Below are positions 32,510-45,664 of a stretch of 64,000 nt of DNA, piece after piece. Each line of letters begins with the position of its first letter. Positions within the stretch are counted from its first letter, which is position 1. The position numbers were made by a program, and so were the translations under genes. This stretch comes from a virus. The notes below the pieces were generated by a model. It did no database searches. It worked only from the letters and a program-made list of their open reading frames with translations, and had not been told where the DNA came from. The DNA is taken from the IMG/VR virus record IMGVR_UViG_3300008113_000012, positions 44,456-108,455 of that record, one strand, 5' to 3'.

Positions 32510-32836
32510 ATGGCATCAGGAAGATTAGGAAACGTAGCAATTTTAGCGGTACAAAGTCCGCCACAAACAGTGTATACTACTCCAACAGGATTTTACACAG
32601 TATGTAATGTGACTATTGTCAATAGAAATACCACTGCTGTGAGAATTCGATTGGCAATGGCGTCGGCAGGCACACCAACTGTGCAGGAGTGGATAGAATA
32701 CGATACAATTATCATCCCAAACGGTGTATTTGAGCGTACTGGACTTGTACTACAAGCCGGACTAAATATAGTAGTATATTCGGACACAGCCAACTTAGGT
32801 TGCACAGTGTACGGAATTGAAACTTCAACAACCTAA
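32510..32836 (+). CDS. Small structural/adaptor protein (paralog family, copy 3)
   Basis: GGAG RBS; 108 aa, similar to copies 1 and 2. Confidence 0.65.
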   Translation: MASGRLGNVAILAVQSPPQTVYTTPTGFYTVCNVTIVNRNTTAVRIRLAMASAGTPTVQEWIEYDTIIIPNGVFERTGLVLQAGLNIVVYSDTANLGCTVYGIETSTT

Positions 32837-32852
32837 TTAGTAGAGATAACAG

Positions 32853-33548
32853 ATGGCACGTTTTAATAGTAAACAATCGATTATATCAGTAACCGGCACA
32901 ACTACGTTAACCTACGTTCTTGACGGGGCAGCAATAGTGATGACAGGAAGTTCTGGTTATGCGTTAACCTTAGCAGGTCCTGCCGCGTTTTCAGGCACAA
33001 CACAAACTATCTGGAACAACACTGCCAGCGGCGATGTTACTATAACTACCGCATCCGGCCAATTTGTCGGATACGGAGCAAGTGCTTCATTATCAATAAC
33101 ACTGCCGTTGAATAATGTTATTAGAATAATTTCAGACGGTACAAATTATTTTATTGCTAAAAGTTCATATGTTGACGACATACAGACATTAAAAACTACC
33201 TTTAACTTGGCTAACGCAACTGCTACTACTATTAACTTTGGTGGCGCAGCAACTTCTGTTCGTATTGGTGCAAGCACTGGTACTTCAGTTGTTAAAAATC
33301 AATTGATTGTTGTAGGAAGACAAACAAACATAACTGCTACAAGAGCATCGGGCGATTACACGTATGACGGTACTGGCAAGATAACTAATTTTGTATTTGG
33401 TAACAAAACAACCAGTGCTATTACCTATGACGGACTGGGTAGAATTAGCGGATTTACAGAAACAATCGTAGACGCAAATGGTAGTGGTACATATACTGTA
33501 ACAAGAACTGTTACATATACTGCTCGTAATGATCCTATCATAGCTTAA
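32853..33548 (+). CDS. Putative tail-fibre protein with C-terminal YD-like repeats
   Basis: IISDGTNYF fibre motif; YTYDGTGKIT and ITYDGLGRIS repeats. Confidence 0.55.
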   Translation: MARFNSKQSIISVTGTTTLTYVLDGAAIVMTGSSGYALTLAGPAAFSGTTQTIWNNTASGDVTITTASGQFVGYGASASLSITLPLNNVIRIISDGTNYFIAKSSYVDDIQTLKTTFNLANATATTINFGGAATSVRIGASTGTSVVKNQLIVVGRQTNITATRASGDYTYDGTGKITNFVFGNKTTSAITYDGLGRISGFTETIVDANGSGTYTVTRTVTYTARNDPIIA

Positions 33549-33567
33549 TGAATAAAGAGGAAGATAA

Positions 33568-34470
33568 ATGGATGTCTTAACAAATAATCGAATACAAGTT
33601 GCAAACTGTAATATTGCAGGACTAACAACGTGTATAGGAAATACAAATACATGTGTAGGTAACGTACTTACATGTGTACAAGGTACTAACACCAGTCTTA
33701 GTAATACTAACACCTGTGTTGGTAACGTGCTAGGTTGCGTACAAAGTGCTAACAGTAATATTGGCGGATTGCAAACATGTATTCAAAATACCAACACTTG
33801 CAATAGTAATCAGCAAACATGTTTAACTAACATTTGGACCTGCGCCAACTCTCTGTGCGCATGTTTAGCAGGTAAATCAACAGGTACACTAGGCTACGAA
33901 CTAATTTCTGGTTGCTCTGGTAACTATGGTTGTATGTGTGTTGCAAGGCCAGGCAAATTCCAGCACTATGTAATTATGGGATCAGCATGTTGCTGGACAC
34001 ATTATTGCTCGCACATGACTATTGGATTTTACGGAGCCTGCAGTCAAGGCTGTTCAGCTAATAACGCAGGTAGTTGGTGCTGTAATCAGTGCTCATGCGG
34101 TATTATTTACAATTCAAAATGTAACAACGGTTCATATCAATACGGTTGTGCAGGAAACTTAGCATGGATTTTTGGATGTACTGGCGGATGTTATACTGCC
34201 TGTTCAGGCTGTAACTTTACATGGGTTATGGAAGTGATGCCTAATAATATTTGTGCATATGATAGAGCATTTAGATACCACATGAAAAGATCACAAGGCG
34301 GCGGGAACTATATGTGCTGTACTGGTATTGAAAATGCAGGACATTCACAGAACTGTTGCGGTGCTGACCCAACTTGTATGCAATACATATGCTTCTCTAA
34401 CCCAAGTGCTGTATGTTCTTTGGGATGTGCAAATATTGCTATATTTGGTGTACATCGTCTTGCTTGTTAA
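33568..34470 (+). CDS. Cysteine-rich protein (40 Cys/300 aa), putative fibre tip
   Basis: GAGG RBS; N-terminal heptad Cys repeats; C-terminal ...I.F.......G..IAIFGV pattern. Confidence 0.7.
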   Translation: MDVLTNNRIQVANCNIAGLTTCIGNTNTCVGNVLTCVQGTNTSLSNTNTCVGNVLGCVQSANSNIGGLQTCIQNTNTCNSNQQTCLTNIWTCANSLCACLAGKSTGTLGYELISGCSGNYGCMCVARPGKFQHYVIMGSACCWTHYCSHMTIGFYGACSQGCSANNAGSWCCNQCSCGIIYNSKCNNGSYQYGCAGNLAWIFGCTGGCYTACSGCNFTWVMEVMPNNICAYDRAFRYHMKRSQGGGNYMCCTGIENAGHSQNCCGADPTCMQYICFSNPSAVCSLGCANIAIFGVHRLAC

Positions 34471-34488: not shown

Positions 34489-34962
34489 ATGGATAAATCA
34501 GAATTTTATAAACTTTGGCACACTAGGCAAGAAGGTGCCGTGCTTAACGAGTACGGGTTCCCTCCAGTGTTATGGCTAGCACAACCAATAACAACTGAAG
34601 AACAATGGACTGATTTTCTCAATCTAGAAATGGAGCCAGTAGAGTTTGCAAAGTTAGATAAAGATGCTGCTGACATGCTTGGAATACCGTTTGTTCTTCC
34701 TCACGTGTTAGTAAGAAAATATCCTGAACCAACAGATCAACTTGACGGGATTTACAAAGCATTATTAGCAATTAAAGAATCTGGAATTGATATAGGCACA
34801 GCTGGAACTGAATATTTAGATAGCATAACTGCTGTTAAAACGTCAGTTCCTAAAACTTATGCACTTCCAGAGGCACCAGATCCTACTATGGGGGTTGAAA
34901 CTGAAGTACTTCCAGAAGAGACTTTACCAGAATTTCCACCGGACTATGAGCCACCAGCATAA
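34489..34962 (+). CDS. Putative tail-fibre assembly chaperone-like protein
   Basis: R.YP...DQLD.IYK...ITAVK...PK pattern seen in small ORFs that follow phage fibres. Confidence 0.5.
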   Translation: MDKSEFYKLWHTRQEGAVLNEYGFPPVLWLAQPITTEEQWTDFLNLEMEPVEFAKLDKDAADMLGIPFVLPHVLVRKYPEPTDQLDGIYKALLAIKESGIDIGTAGTEYLDSITAVKTSVPKTYALPEAPDPTMGVETEVLPEETLPEFPPDYEPPA

Positions 34963-34987: not shown

Positions 34988-35027
34988 GTACCCACATAAA
35001 TAGAAGCAAGAACTATTATGTGGGTAC
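34988..35027 (+). promoter_or_regulatory. 12-bp perfect inverted repeat overlapping a late promoter core (TAAATA 34997-35002)
   Basis: gtacccacataa ... ttatgtgggtac, ending just before ATG 35031. Confidence 0.7.
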
Positions 35028-35030
35028 TTT

Positions 35031-36119
35031 ATGAATAAACCAACCAAAAAAGCATTTGTTATAAACGGAGGAGTCGGCCGCGTTCTTTGCGCTATTCCTG
35101 CATTAGAACACTATGCAAAGCTAAACAATAATGAATTAATTGTTGTAGCAGAAGCCTGGTCAGAGTTATTTCTATCAAGTAAAATTTTAAGAGACAAAGT
35201 TTATCTATTAACTGATAAAAATCTTTTTAATATTTTAAAAGATTACGAAATTATTTCTCCCGAACCGTATCGACTTAACGCATACTTTACTCAGAAAGTA
35301 AATTTAATACAAGCATTTGACATGCTAATTAATTACGATACTCCTCCTGAAAAAATTCCTGAAACTAAAAAATTCGATTTAGACATTGGAAAGTCAGATC
35401 AAATATTCGGATATACTTCAGTAGAAGAAGTAAAGAAATTATACAAAAAAGACAAAGTTATTGTATTTCAGCCTTTTGGTAGCGGAATAAAACAAAATGG
35501 ATCATTTCTATATGATGAAACTGGCAGGTCATTTGAGCCAAATGACGTTTACCAAATAATTAAAGAATTATCTAAAAATTATGCTATAATAATGTTTAGT
35601 AATTTTAATCCCTTTCCTGAAGGAGAACTTCCAGTAGTTGTACCTACTACTGTAAATCTTTTGCAATGGATGGGAGTTGTTAATGCAGCAGACTATTTTC
35701 TAGGTTGTGACTCAGTGGGACAACATTATGCCAATGCGCTAAACAAACCATCAACTGTTGTTATTGGATCTACTTATCCAGAGAATATTTCATATCCAGA
35801 TAATTCAAGATTTAAAATATTTGATCTAGGTAAAGATAGACGAAAGTATTCTCCTCTTAGAATAACTAATGATTTTGCAGTAGAACGCAATAATGAATCT
35901 TTAATGGTTTTAGATAAAGATCAGTTAAAATCAATTATTAAAAGTATTCAACATGTACTAGGTACAAAAAATAATTTTGTAGCAACACCGGAAACTAACA
36001 TATCTATACCTAATAATGCCTGCTGCCCGCCAAATACTCCAGAGTTCATGAAACCATCATTGCCAGCAACACCGGCACCATTAATAACAAATAATACACT
36101 AACTGAAATAAAAAAATAA
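35031..36119 (+). CDS. Glycosyltransferase family 9-like (heptosyltransferase-like, GT-B fold)
   Basis: GGVGRVLCAIPAL N-terminal motif; QPFGSG; FLGCDSVGQHYANALNKPSTVVIGST matches the GT9 DS..H.A.A...P....G.T signature. Confidence 0.75.
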   Translation: MNKPTKKAFVINGGVGRVLCAIPALEHYAKLNNNELIVVAEAWSELFLSSKILRDKVYLLTDKNLFNILKDYEIISPEPYRLNAYFTQKVNLIQAFDMLINYDTPPEKIPETKKFDLDIGKSDQIFGYTSVEEVKKLYKKDKVIVFQPFGSGIKQNGSFLYDETGRSFEPNDVYQIIKELSKNYAIIMFSNFNPFPEGELPVVVPTTVNLLQWMGVVNAADYFLGCDSVGQHYANALNKPSTVVIGSTYPENISYPDNSRFKIFDLGKDRRKYSPLRITNDFAVERNNESLMVLDKDQLKSIIKSIQHVLGTKNNFVATPETNISIPNNACCPPNTPEFMKPSLPATPAPLITNNTLTEIKK

Positions 36120-36129
36120 AGGAAGTACA

Positions 36130-37932
36130 ATGAATCAAACAAAAACAGGTTATATTTTAGGTATTTCTCGAGGACACAATGCTGGTGTTTGTCTTTTGAA
36201 AGACGGCGAAATAGTGTTCAGTATCGAGGAAGAAAGACTTAGTAGATTTAAGTATGACGGAAGTCCTCTAGCTAGTATGAGGAAAGTTTTAGATTATACT
36301 GATAAAATTGACTACTTAGTAGTTGCACATACTCAGCCACTTAAAGGATGTCCGCAAATTGAATATTCAGGCGACGATATGTATACCGGCATGGCAAGAA
36401 AGTTAGGATTAATCGACAGAAAAGAAAATATTTGGAATCATCCTCAAGTAATTGATGTAAGTAATCAACATCATAAAATTCATGCAGCTTGTGCATTTTA
36501 TAATTCAGGATTTAAAAATGCAGTTGCAGTAGTAGTTGACGGCGCTGGCTCTGAATTTACATATAAAGGTAAAGAAAAAGAACACGCTTTATGGGAAGTA
36601 GAATCAATTTTTAACTGTTCTTACGATACTGGAATAACTACAAAATTTAAACATTTCGGTTGTAGAGACCCTATTCCAAATTCATATAGCACTACTATGA
36701 ATTTTGAGTATTTTGATGAGCCTGAGTCTCAATTTGAATGCATTATTACTGACCATGCAGGCATAGTAAAATGTTATGAAGCAGTTACAGAATATTGCGG
36801 ATTCGATGCTATCGAAGCAGGAAAGACTATGGGATTATTCCCTTACGGTAAACCAATCGATAACTTGCCTCCCTTGTTTCAGCAAGATATGAAATTTCCA
36901 ATTTCTAATAGAAACATTGTTATTCCTACATATCCAAATAGTGCAATACTCAACTCTGCAATGTACGGAGCTTTAGAACAATGGTTTTCTGAAGGAGTTG
37001 ATCCTACTACACTAGATAATAGAAGAGATGCTGCATATTGGGTTCAAACTCAAACTCAACAAGCAGTTCTTAATTTTATTATTAAAGCTGCTACACAGAC
37101 TGGAAATAACAACGTTGTTCTTAGTGGAGGTTACGGTTTAAATTGTGTTGCTAACTATTTTTATCTTACTAAATTAAATGAATTAGGTATTAATTTATAT
37201 GTTGAACCCGTATCAAATGATAGCGGAACCGCAGTTGGAGCAGCATTATTCTGGTACTATATTTCATCGGGTGATACTGCTCTTAGAAATAAAGCTAATA
37301 CATTATATCTTGGACCTCATTATAATTACACCGCAGAATATATTACAAATGCAGCAGCAAAAGTTGAAGCTGAGATTACAGATTGCACAGAAGACGATAT
37401 TGTAGATTTATTATCTCGCAAACACATTGTAGCCATGTTTCAAGGTCGCAGTGAAAATGGTCCTCGTGCATTAGGAAATCGTTCAATTTTATTCGATCCA
37501 AGATATAAAGACGGAAAGGCATATGTAAATCGTGTTAAAAATAGAGAATATTTTAGACCTTTTGCAGGTAGCATTTTAGCAGAACATGCACACGAATGGT
37601 TTGATTTGCGAGGTATGGAAGATAGTCCGCATATGATGTATGCTGTAAACTGTCAAGAAGGTGTAGCTGAAAAAATACCATCAGTTATTCATGAAGACGG
37701 AACTTGCAGAATTCAAACAGTAACAAAAGAGAATAACGAAAATTTTTATGCGCTAATTAATGCTTTCTACAAAAAAACTGGCATGCCAATTTTGTTTAAT
37801 ACAAGTTTCAACTTAGGCGGAGAACCTTTAGTAGAAACTCTTGAAGATGCATTATGGACTCTAGAAAATTCGTTAATTGAATACTTATACTTGCCTGAAT
37901 GCAAAAAACTTATTATATTAAAAAATGGCTAA
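36130..37932 (+). CDS. Carbamoyltransferase, NodU/CmcH/TobZ family
   Basis: EEERLSRFK, HH..HA, VVDGAG, GKTMGL, LSGG..LNCVAN, GPRALGNRSIL, KNRE.FRPFA, H.DGTCRIQTV, NTSFN..GEPLVE. Confidence 0.93.
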   Translation: MNQTKTGYILGISRGHNAGVCLLKDGEIVFSIEEERLSRFKYDGSPLASMRKVLDYTDKIDYLVVAHTQPLKGCPQIEYSGDDMYTGMARKLGLIDRKENIWNHPQVIDVSNQHHKIHAACAFYNSGFKNAVAVVVDGAGSEFTYKGKEKEHALWEVESIFNCSYDTGITTKFKHFGCRDPIPNSYSTTMNFEYFDEPESQFECIITDHAGIVKCYEAVTEYCGFDAIEAGKTMGLFPYGKPIDNLPPLFQQDMKFPISNRNIVIPTYPNSAILNSAMYGALEQWFSEGVDPTTLDNRRDAAYWVQTQTQQAVLNFIIKAATQTGNNNVVLSGGYGLNCVANYFYLTKLNELGINLYVEPVSNDSGTAVGAALFWYYISSGDTALRNKANTLYLGPHYNYTAEYITNAAAKVEAEITDCTEDDIVDLLSRKHIVAMFQGRSENGPRALGNRSILFDPRYKDGKAYVNRVKNREYFRPFAGSILAEHAHEWFDLRGMEDSPHMMYAVNCQEGVAEKIPSVIHEDGTCRIQTVTKENNENFYALINAFYKKTGMPILFNTSFNLGGEPLVETLEDALWTLENSLIEYLYLPECKKLIILKNG

Positions 37933-43799: not shown

Positions 43800-44642
43800 A
43801 TGAAAAATAAAATATCAACTCTATACATTACCGGCGACAGTTTTAGTCAAATAATTCCCGACGATGTAAACGACCAACTTTGGCCGATACAGTTAGCTAG
43901 GGTTATCAATGCTAAACTACAAAACACTAGTTGTTACGGAGTTTCACAAGACTGGAATTGGTCTATTTTAGAAGAATGGTCAGATAAAATAACTTCAGAC
44001 GATCAGCTAATTGTAGTACTCACTGATCCGGGAAGATTTTGGTTCATTGAAGATAAACCTGAACTTTCAAATTCATGGATAGTAGAATCAGAATTTGAAA
44101 AATTAATAGGTAATAGTGAAATCAAAAAAGCAATCGAGTATTATATCCAATATATACAGCGACCTAAGATAGATTGTAGATTTTTAATGCATCGATTAGG
44201 CTGGCTTAATAATCTTGTAAGAATAAACAATTGGAAGAAGCCGTTAATACTACTAGCATTTGATCAATTCGTACCAAATCCTCAGCACTATCCTGATCTA
44301 ACAATTGTGCCCGGCAATTTAATGCATGTTTCCCATGCTGAAACAGATATCAATGATCCCATTGATTATAAATTTGTTGACACCCGACATAATCATTTTA
44401 CATTATCTAACCATACTATTTTAGCTACTAAAATAGGAAAGTTTCTAACAACTGGCGAAGAGATTGACTTAAAATCAGGTTTTATCAAAAACGTGTATAC
44501 GCAGACAGCAATTAATAATCCTGACTTTGTCAAGAATGAGTTGTCATTGGCAAATTTTGAAAGATATAAATTATACAAGTCAACACAGCCTGGAGACCAT
44601 ATTTCAATTATGAATCGCATTCGTGCTATGCAAAGAAAATAA
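43800..44642 (+). CDS. Hypothetical protein, SGNH/GDSL hydrolase-like
   Basis: N-terminal TGDSFS block and late NHFT motif; TATAAGTA upstream at 43776-43783. Confidence 0.5.
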   Translation: MKNKISTLYITGDSFSQIIPDDVNDQLWPIQLARVINAKLQNTSCYGVSQDWNWSILEEWSDKITSDDQLIVVLTDPGRFWFIEDKPELSNSWIVESEFEKLIGNSEIKKAIEYYIQYIQRPKIDCRFLMHRLGWLNNLVRINNWKKPLILLAFDQFVPNPQHYPDLTIVPGNLMHVSHAETDINDPIDYKFVDTRHNHFTLSNHTILATKIGKFLTTGEEIDLKSGFIKNVYTQTAINNPDFVKNELSLANFERYKLYKSTQPGDHISIMNRIRAMQRK

Positions 44643-44712: not shown

Positions 44713-45408
44713 ATGATTATAGGTGTATGCGGGTTTATTGGTTCTGGCAAAGATACTGTTGCTGACTATCTTACAAATTTTCACGGATTTAGACGAGAAT
44801 CATTTGCCAATAGTTTGAAAGATGCAGTAGCACATGTATTTGGTTGGGACAGAACAATGCTCGAAGGGCGTACAAAACAGGCCCGTGAATGGCGTGAACA
44901 AGTAGATCCTTGGTGGGCAGACCGACTCGGCATTCCAACTCTTACTCCTCGTTGGGTCTTACAATATTGGGGAACAGAAGTGTGCCGTCGAGCATTTCAC
45001 GATGACATTTGGATTGCCAGCCTTGAAAATAAACTCCGAAACAGCCGAGACGACATTGTTATTAGTGACTGTCGCTTCCCTAACGAAATTAAATCAATTA
45101 AAGATGCAGGTGGCATTGTAGTACGTGTAGTTCGAGGACCTGAGCCAGACTGGTATCAAGATGCTATAGATATGAATGCAGGTGACCGTTGTATAACTTA
45201 TATGACTGCTAAAGTACGTATGCAAAAATTGGGAATACATGCTAGTGAAACTGCATGGGTTGGAACTAAGTTTGACTTAGTTCTAGATAACAATGCCACT
45301 ATTGATGACTTGTTTGCACAAGTTAAAAGTCTGGTTTTAGAGACCCCTGCTTCCATTGAAAACCCTCCTTATGGAGAGTCCTTTGGCAGTTTGCACACAC
45401 TGTCTTAA
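44713..45408 (+). CDS. gp1: Deoxynucleoside monophosphate kinase (T4 gp1-like)
   Basis: GFIGSGKDT P-loop, FA..LK, PR.VLQ..GTE, ISDCRFPNE, HASE. Confidence 0.92.
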   Translation: MIIGVCGFIGSGKDTVADYLTNFHGFRRESFANSLKDAVAHVFGWDRTMLEGRTKQAREWREQVDPWWADRLGIPTLTPRWVLQYWGTEVCRRAFHDDIWIASLENKLRNSRDDIVISDCRFPNEIKSIKDAGGIVVRVVRGPEPDWYQDAIDMNAGDRCITYMTAKVRMQKLGIHASETAWVGTKFDLVLDNNATIDDLFAQVKSLVLETPASIENPPYGESFGSLHTLS

Positions 45409-45664
45409 GATTTGCAGGACGGGAGTTATTTAGATTCCCGTCTACGTGGAACACATTAAACTGTTCCTTATACTTGCTTTTATAGCCACACTTATCGCAT
45501 TCTGACTTCATGCGATATCCATCTTGATACCACTTGGGCATACCTTTGCCTATTCCCCCATATCGAGCGCACACTTCGCATTTAGAGCGATAGAATACTC
45601 TACCTTCTTTACGATAGTTAATAGCAGCTGGTCTTAGCCCGCATCCGCATAGTGGTCTTATCAT
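45323..45664 (-). CDS. Small Zn-finger/HNH-like protein
   Basis: CGC, CEVC, CDKC, HVDGNLNN...NL..VCANC. Confidence 0.75.
   Translation of the reverse strand: MIRPLCGCGLRPAAINYRKEGRVFYRSKCEVCARYGGIGKGMPKWYQDGYRMKSECDKCGYKSKYKEQFNVFHVDGNLNNSRPANLKTVCANCQRTLHKEGFQWKQGSLKPDF

Follow-up and report, generated by a model that had tools for sequence, protein, structure and literature searches.

Why should a phage protein of 300 amino acids (aa) carry 40 cysteines, many of them exactly seven residues apart? This is the question raised by the coding sequence at 33568..34470 (+ strand) of a 64,000-nucleotide (nt) stretch of viral DNA, positions 44,456 to 108,455 of the IMG/VR record IMGVR_UViG_3300008113_000012; the whole stretch is called the window below, and the gene and its product are called the Cys-gene and the Cys-protein. 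The answer that we favour, with a probability of about one half, is that it is an adhesin at a fibre tip, trimeric, with a head braced by disulfides and with a chaperone as its partner. An earlier sequence-only reading of this DNA had already proposed a fibre protein made of a stalk plus a tip, and this proposal is now supported by three lines of evidence, namely the position of the gene in a phage structural module, the conserved gene order around it, and the finding of its head domain as the C-terminal part of fibre proteins.

The starting observation of that reading holds: 40 Cys amount to 13.3% of the protein (which also has 36 Gly and 35 Asn), compared with 0.54% on average in the remaining 36 gene-sized open reading frames (ORFs) of the window, and the binomial probability of at least 40 Cys in 300 aa at this background rate is about 5e-42. 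The Cys-protein is the sole ORF of such Cys content at comparable size in the 108-kb record; its two neighbours, p231 and p157, have no Cys, and the wedge proteins of the window have 0-5 each. We consider the gene to be real and the 300-aa reading to be correct, because the full-length homologues (P0001-P0006, 285-303 aa) have a common N-terminus, MDVLTNNRIQ. A Shine-Dalgarno sequence, GAGGA (33557..33561, +), lies 6 nt 5' of the ATG. Co-transcription with the fibre genes is probable, since the gene starts only 19 nt past the stop of the preceding one; the gap on the other side is 18 nt. One public gene call for the same record (P0064) gives only the last 151 aa, from the internal Met150 (34015-34470, +), so that the stalk may be absent from existing annotation. 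A 142-aa antisense ORF (33285-33713, -) overlaps the stalk and may be the reason for this short call.

The window is a structural region, with genes for the baseplate wedge, for fibres of 2723 and 3473 aa, and for sheath, tube and terminase; the neighbours of the Cys-gene encode baseplate-wedge and tail-fibre proteins of 1268-3473 aa. The nearest isolates are the cyanomyoviruses P-SSM2 and S-SSM7, and one of the loci with the same gene order (L002) is classed as Kyanoviridae; judged from its sequence, the source is a T4-like cyanophage of that family. The giant fibre genes are followed by p108 (32510..32836, +), a small protein matching phrog_11338 'tail fiber protein' (E 1.7e-9), by p231 (32853..33548, +), a virion-structural-like protein with a MARF start (phrog_6002, E 3.7e-6), and by the Cys-gene; then come p157 (34489..34962, +), an acidic protein (phrog_2504), a GT9-like glycosyltransferase (35031-36119, +) and a NodU/CmcH-type carbamoyltransferase (36130-37932, +). 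The order fibre, p108, variable genes, Cys-gene, p157, GT9-like gene, carbamoyltransferase recurs in 22 loci (twenty metagenome loci, L001 and L002), with identity between Cys-proteins falling to 35%. A homologue of p108 is upstream in 15 of them, and L020 and L021 have upstream DNA with no match to it. The association with p157 is stricter: a p157 homologue follows the gene for the Cys-rich domain in 21 of the 21 loci with downstream DNA, and the two enzyme genes follow p157 in every locus of sufficient length. Between the window and L002, p157 is 46% identical and the Cys-protein only 36%. This pairing makes p157 a candidate assembly chaperone of the Cys-protein; a profile of p157 detected no sequence relative among the chains of the Protein Data Bank (PDB). 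As for p231, the MARF[KL]G N-terminus is joined straight onto the Cys-rich head in other loci, and p231 is thus possibly a proximal adaptor.

The third line of evidence comes from the distribution of the head. A word-indexed search gave six full-length clusters (57-97% identity, 11.8-13.7% Cys), and an exhaustive profile search of 1.84 billion representatives found the C-terminal domain (residues 103-299, approximately) in about 20 clusters at 50% identity. Conserved enrichment in cysteine, whose absence from homologues would have refuted the sequence-only reading, is present, the homologues ranging from 8.5 to 13.7% Cys. Their N-termini are diverse: long fibre type, MARF[LK]G start, a Big_2 domain, or almost nothing. 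In P0008 and P0015 the head domain ends long fibre proteins whose N-termini carry CBM5/12-type repeats, like the giant fibres of the window; at the other extreme, P0018 is nearly stalkless, with a 13-aa N-terminus, and retains the head. Pfam and PHROG scans of the Cys-protein gave nothing, no Pfam match at E<=1 was obtained for any of 25 head-family members, the ESM Atlas had no usable match for the Cys-protein, and PDB sequence searches with the stalk and with the head profile gave nothing meaningful. Among 50,697 phage records the head family was present in a single one, an unannotated single-cell amplified genome classed as Kyanoviridae; its other members come from metagenomes of marine and other aquatic origin.

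The head (aa 104-300, 33877..34467, +) contains 28 Cys and is predicted to be an all-beta sandwich. When modelled alone (aa 100-300) with AlphaFold2 (AF2) on the 25-sequence alignment A3, it reached a mean predicted local distance difference test score (pLDDT) of 82.2 and a predicted template modelling score of 0.83, with about 11 strands. With this model, a search of BFVD returned 99 matches at E<=1e-3, with template modelling (TM) scores of 0.5-0.59, all of them phage proteins and several labelled tail fiber, collagen repeat or lambda Stf repeat. VIA-align against the PDB found galectins, GH32 C-terminal sandwiches, legume lectins and phage baseplate carbohydrate-binding modules (Z 5-7.3), the best being galectin and GH32 C-terminal sandwiches (Z 6-7.3 over 110-125 residues); no Foldseek match in the PDB reached E<=0.001, and TM was at most 0.36. 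A galectin/ConA-like beta-sandwich is a plausible, if not decisive, description of this model.

The cysteines of the head comprise a conserved set and a variable one. In the 25 sequences C177, C194, C263, C264 and C270 are invariant, and at least 22 of them retain C147, C171, C172, C212 and C275; the total per head varies from 14 to 29 among members. The CC and CxC pairs noticed in the sequence-only reading are indeed there, four of the former (141/142, 171/172, 250/251, 263/264) and three of the latter (122/124 and 175/177, and 97/99 in the stalk). Accessory Cys are gained or lost pairwise (124/283, 185/208, 158/287, 122/141), a pattern that fits disulfide staples on a stable sandwich.

The stalk (aa 9-103, 33592..33876, +) consists of 13 heptads. 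Twelve Cys are found within the first 105 residues (14, 22, 29, 36, 50, 57, 71, 78, 85, 92, 97 and 99), and the seven-residue period reported previously is borne out, since ten of them (22, 29, 36, 50, 57, 71, 78, 85, 92 and 99) are congruent to 1 modulo 7, for which the chance probability (at least 10 of 12 in one class) is about 1e-6. Two heptads have another residue in the register position, S43 and N64. The register is kept in all six full-length homologue clusters, including P0004-6, where other heptads are filled (Cys at 22, 43, 50, 57, 64, 71 and 85). Taking the stalk heptads of the family together, the Cys position is occupied by C in 68 cases, N in 20, T in 5 and S in 3, and the shares of the main residues elsewhere are 87% for I/V/L one position on, 95% for G/N/S at position 4 and 90% for T/S at position 7. 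The suggestion that Cys here takes the place of Ser or Thr holds only loosely: both residues do occur, but Asn is commoner, and analogous heptads lacking Cys use Asp, Glu, Lys, Val or Ala.

Several features fit the earlier suggestion that this stalk is a helical coiled coil. It has the heptad periodicity with hydrophobic a and d positions that such a structure requires, a being mostly I/V/L (IIIVVLVVIINLAL: I9, I16, I23, V30, V37, L44, V51, V58, I65, I72, N79, L86, A93, L100) and d mostly T/V/A/L (ALTVTTVALTQIL: A12, L19, T26, V33, T40, T47, V54, A61, L68, T75, Q82, I89, L96). The 3-4 hydrophobic spacing is unbroken from I9 to L100, the hydropathy period is strongest at 3.5 with almost nothing at 2.0, and residues 1-127 are free of Pro. 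When the whole protein was modelled from 7 sequences AF2 reached a pLDDT of 42, and placed helices at 3-73 and 82-99 with a pLDDT of only about 33. That the coiled coil is a trimer is suggested by analogy, because of the fibre context and because some of the structural look-alikes contain collagen repeats.

In which position of the heptad, then, are the cysteines? In the canonical register they are at g (RNCCCSCCNCCCCC), and the facing e' positions are for the most part occupied by Asn, Gln or Leu. We lean towards this register, in which the Cys flank the core; placing them at d, within the core, is somewhat less probable in our opinion but has to be taken seriously. In profile-aligned, fibre-like heptad proteins without Cys, the Cys column contains D, E, K, V or A and the next column I/V, which supports a partly exposed place beside the core for the Cys. 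At the stalk-head junction, the motif C92-x4-C97-x-C99 (Cys positions spanning 33841..33864, +) puts C92 at g and C97 at e', with the i to i+5 separation that g-e' pairs between helices have, and an interchain disulfide C92-C97 may form there; C97 is present solely in the three closest sequences.

The sequence-only reading also described a 63-nt internal duplication. A three-heptad unit does recur at an offset of 63 nt (aa 23-40, 33634-33687, and aa 44-61, 33697-33750, both +) with 14 of 18 aa identical, but only 38 of 54 nt are (70-76% nucleotide identity), and Tandem Repeats Finder reports a 21-nt period alone, at 33684-33725; the duplication is old and diverged. A distant protein of the same head family, P0019, has in its residues 21-76 a stalk of another kind, an 11-residue repeat ACSxLCTYVNT with five CxxxC pairs. 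Cys beside the stalk core thus seems to have arisen at least twice within the head family. Most of the matches to an N-terminal profile (P0025-P0063) were set aside as compositional, being perfect 7-residue tandem repeats from unrelated or spurious ORFs. Two unrelated proteins look like further natural Cys-bearing coiled coils: P0062, with about 12 heptads in which L/V is followed three residues on by Cys (a Cys-at-d pattern), preceded by an N-terminal hydrophobic stretch resembling a membrane anchor, and P0057, with 21-residue repeats containing one CC pair each before a further C-terminal region.

Putting these observations together, we propose that the Cys-protein is the distal, host-recognising subunit of a small fibre or of a fibre tip. 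Its N-terminal peptide would dock on the fibre or adaptor proteins encoded just upstream; the candidate docking motif is MDVLTNNR (33568..33591, +), which is invariant in the 7-sequence clade, and an M(S)DV[IL] start, a weak similarity, is also present on short-stalk members and on Cys-rich neighbours of the Gly_rich_2 type discussed below. The stalk would be a parallel alpha-helical coiled coil of 13 heptads, most likely a trimer, with one Cys per heptad beside the core, and the galectin/ConA-like sandwich of about 200 aa would bear the receptor-binding surface. The ten near-invariant Cys and up to 18 accessory ones would cross-brace this head, most likely as disulfides, which would form once the particle reaches oxygenated water, and p157 would serve this protein alone, in folding and assembly. 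No Erv1/ALR sulfhydryl oxidase was found when the record of this phage was searched for one, which is uninformative, as the record is 29% complete and control genomes gave none either. In the g register the stalk thiols could not pair with one another, since each chain has a single one in a heptad and about 10 A separate them; C92(g)-C97(e') would be an exception, and could form a ring of interchain disulfides under the head. The remaining thiols would be half-buried packing or hydrogen-bonding residues.

Several observations weigh against this proposal and should be acknowledged. The match of the head to known folds is middling, as Z values up to 7.3 are, by the calibration of the tool itself, common among unrelated beta-sandwiches. 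Phylogeny confounds the pattern of Cys appearing and disappearing in pairs (124/283 represents a single clade), and several members have odd numbers of Cys (37 in P0003), so that not all of them can be disulfide-bonded. The low confidence of the modelled stalk has already been given, and none of the carriers of the head family among the phage records is a cultured phage. A 25-fold enrichment in Cys is not explained by packing alone. Finally, there are two arguments for Cys at d: the Cys are at the centre of the conserved helix face (positions 7, 4, 1, 5, 2), and an ungapped alignment, by our own reading, from the shared MDV start to relatives having clear amphipathic N-terminal helices puts the d positions of these relatives on N15, C22 and C29.

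These last two points also speak for a metal-thiolate protein, which is the most probable of the alternatives, although we consider it doubtful. The Cys would then be at d, where as many as ten Cys3 sites stacked along the 3-fold axis would bind soft metals such as Cu(I), Cd, Zn or Hg, and the CC, CxC and CxxC pairs of the head would bind metal clusters, making folding possible in the reducing cytoplasm. Such a register (d = Cys, a = T/V/A/L, e = I/V/L) is geometrically valid, N, T and S are the only alternatives to Cys at that position, and heptads are filled independently (S43, N64), as expected if the same residue of the other chains completes each layer. Asn layers are known at core positions of trimeric coiled coils; along the axis of phage T4 gp37 runs a ladder of His-Fe sites, and Hg, Cd, As and Pb are bound by coiled coils designed with Cys3 sites. 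However, I/V/L, the aliphatic position with the highest hydrophobicity and conservation (mean Kyte-Doolittle value 3.5), would then fall at e, off the core; the hydrophobic moment (the vector sum of per-position hydropathies) points between positions 5 and 2 and not toward the Cys; and the analogous Cys-free heptads accept D, E or K at the Cys position. In the head, the predicted fold is kept with as few as 14 Cys, and the pairwise variation of Cys suits disulfides better than fixed metal sites. Trace metals are moreover scarce in the open ocean. The metal ladder along the 3-fold axis, one of the possibilities raised in the sequence-only reading, is therefore weakened, as it requires the less likely geometry.

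Less probable in our view is that the Cys-protein is a scaffold for modification, the stalk (with Thr/Ser just before the Cys position in 90% of heptads) or the head being a substrate of the GT9-like transferase and of the carbamoyltransferase, so that the tip would bear O- or S-linked, carbamoylated heptose-type sugars. The constant association of the two enzyme genes with the Cys-gene/p157 pair speaks for it, as does the fact that the same enzymes follow the unrelated Gly_rich_2-type Cys-rich proteins of P-SSM2, S-SSM7 and S-CAM3 and that the S-RIM32 tip, with 3 Cys only and a p157-like gene, comes without them; the conservation of T/S at position 7 is also above the norm for an exposed heptad position. 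Among known enzymes, the GT9-related heptosyltransferases TibC and AAH O-heptosylate the repeats of bacterial adhesins. On the other hand, the enzymes could act on host envelope glycans instead, nothing points to Cys over Ser/Thr as acceptor, and the nearly stalkless members such as P0018 keep the head (gene order being known from the 22 loci above), so that the stalk heptads cannot be a general target of modification. The enzyme genes may also form a separate transcription unit, as suggested by a hairpin in the interval that separates the GT9-like gene from p157. This is an inverted repeat of 12 bp without mismatch (GTACCCACATAA ... TTATGTGGGTAC), with a 16-nt loop (34988..35027, +) and a TAAATA motif; only 3 nt lie between its end and the ATG of the GT9-like gene, for which there is no Shine-Dalgarno sequence. 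A scan for consensus terminators found none at this place; the hairpin could end the fibre operon or control how the enzyme genes are translated. We also thought of a lanthipeptide-like Thr/Cys crosslink and dropped the idea for lack of support, with no resemblance to a leader peptide and no synthetase among the annotated neighbours.

Across these two alternatives, one may ask whether the 30 thiols of the trimeric stalk have a function of their own, either as stacked soft-metal or redox-sensing Cys3 sites or as acceptors or sequon partners for a heptosyl-carbamoyl modification; we regard this as unlikely.

The stalk could also be imagined as a narrow beta-solenoid with an internal Cys-Cys ladder instead of a coiled coil, by comparison with the insect antifreeze protein TmAFP, which has a Cys every 6 residues. 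Its composition (rich in Thr, Asn, Gly, Ser, Val and Cys, and uncharged from 9 to 102), the turn-like Gly/Asn/Ser at position 4 and the very low confidence of the AF2 helices would all suit such a structure, which we nevertheless find very improbable. Pairing of i with i+7 leaves an unpaired Cys in either phase, the ladder would be broken by S43 and N64 (by T29, N36 and N78 in P0004-6), and the absence of Pro from the first 127 residues, the hydropathy period of 3.5 with hardly any power at 2.0, and the plain amphipathic helices at the equivalent N-termini of relatives all go in the opposite direction. The TmAFP-like disulfide version was rejected, as the Cys occupancy breaks regular intrachain pairing. 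Finally, a non-virion protein housed in the fibre operon, either an intracellular or released metal or redox buffer or a host-takeover factor, is the least probable of all, as the silence of the Pfam and PHROG scans, which speaks for it, is countered by a head that is the C-terminal domain of long fibre proteins, by structural look-alikes that are phage fibre and baseplate proteins, and by the tight packing of the gene within this operon.

Among known systems, the closest solved analogue of the proposed fibre tip in architecture may be the fibre of cyanophage Pam3, where gp24 has an N-terminal helical domain and distal binding domains and is served by the chaperone gp25, and where virions contain structural disulfides, including an outward-facing Cys of the helical domain used for a covalent link (PMC9942802, PMC9608196). 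Like gp24, the Cys-protein would be a small fibre protein with an N-terminal helical docking or stalk part, a distal receptor-binding part and a partner gene directly downstream. There are also differences: the Pam3 head combines a TNF-like domain with a polyglycine-II glycine-rich domain, whereas here a galectin-like sandwich is predicted and there is no Gly_rich_2 match; the Pam3 helix has one Cys (Cys28) instead of 10-12 in register; and this window has no Cys-rich partner of the kind formed by the wedge loops of Pam3. Pam3 gp24 is not among the listed structural matches of the head, and galectin-like sandwiches are.

The resemblance of the head to galectin/ConA lectins, including the galectin domain of the porcine adenovirus fibre, lies in a two-sheet sandwich of 110-125 residues (Z 5.3-7.3, root-mean-square deviation 3.0-3.7 A), with only 5-8% identity, and the known folds are not Cys-rich. 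Regarding the stalk, axial metal ladders (the T4 gp37 needle, the designed TRI/CoilSer peptides) share with it a potential ligand residue that recurs in a fixed position along a trimeric fibre or coiled coil, but their ligands are on the axis (a or d) and the canonical register puts the Cys at g. In fibrinogen-type 'disulfide rings' each chain of a three-stranded coiled coil contributes a CxxxC, and the CxxxC pairs of P0019 and the g-e' spacing of C92/C97 recall this arrangement, unlike the ten main stalk Cys, which are single in each heptad, with a partner out of reach.

Cys-rich proteins are not restricted to this family in the genomic slot between the long fibre and the GT9-like/carbamoyltransferase genes. 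In P-SSM2, S-SSM7 and S-CAM3 the slot contains two or three tandem proteins of 260-360 aa with 8-12% Cys (24-36 Cys each): PSSM2_304/306 (L003, 1976-3046 and 3775-4842), SSSM7_114-116 (L025, 1214-3607) and S-CAM3 gp156-158 (L026, 1133-3951). They have glycine-rich WGAGGG motifs, four of the eight match Gly_rich_2 (PF21722), several begin with a similar short M(S)DV helix, and p108 is also present in P-SSM2 and S-CAM3. None of them has a heptad-Cys stalk, and the Cys-protein has neither a PF21722 match nor WGAGGG motifs. No homology was found between these proteins and the head family by BLASTP and hhalign (alignment A3 against A5, the Gly_rich_2-type alignment: probability 0.2), nor with S-RIM32 gp147, nor between p157 and PSSM2_305. 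Published virion proteomics (Sullivan et al. 2010, PMC3037559) concerns S-SM1, S-PM2 and Syn9, and the supplements searched had no entry for PSSM2_304/306.

In L007, L008 and L015 the two kinds of Cys-rich tip stand one after the other, and a separate small Cys-poor gene follows each of them. In L008 (1868-4926) a 94-aa MGRY protein precedes a Gly_rich_2-type protein (329 aa, 32 Cys) and a 213-aa partner, followed by an A3-type protein (232 aa, 24 Cys) and a p157 homologue, which looks like two adhesin-plus-partner cassettes. In S-RIM32 (L027, 2947-4243) a 304-aa glycine-rich tip protein with the 3 Cys already mentioned directly follows the giant fibre gene and is itself followed by the p157-like gene (118 aa), which indicates that the p157 family accompanies tip proteins whether Cys-rich or not. 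Extreme Cys enrichment thus appears in at least two sequence families of this slot without detectable homology to each other. Selection may have favoured it in both for the same reason, be it stability in oxic water, redox control or modification.

What appears to be new here, as far as these comparisons go, is a head family without detectable homology to the Gly_rich_2 tips, a heptad-Cys stalk whose register is conserved, the analysis of this register, and the strict pairing with p157. Fibre tips determine which picocyanobacteria a phage infects, and those of marine T4-like cyanophages are almost uncharacterised. The head family defined in this work has no Pfam or PHROG model, is known from uncultured phages only, and travels with a partner gene and two sugar-tailoring enzymes. 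Its heptad stalk is a simple, expressible object of 100 residues for probing a Cys column in a natural coiled coil. Should the stalk thiols be functional, this would be a virion chemistry that has not been described for phage fibres, and if the redox or metal interpretation were true, the fibre tip would switch when the particle leaves the cell or reaches its host. Elsewhere in the window, a 113-aa ORF with 8 Cys (7.1%) is found among structural genes at 45323-45664 (-), just upstream of the tail sheath gene.

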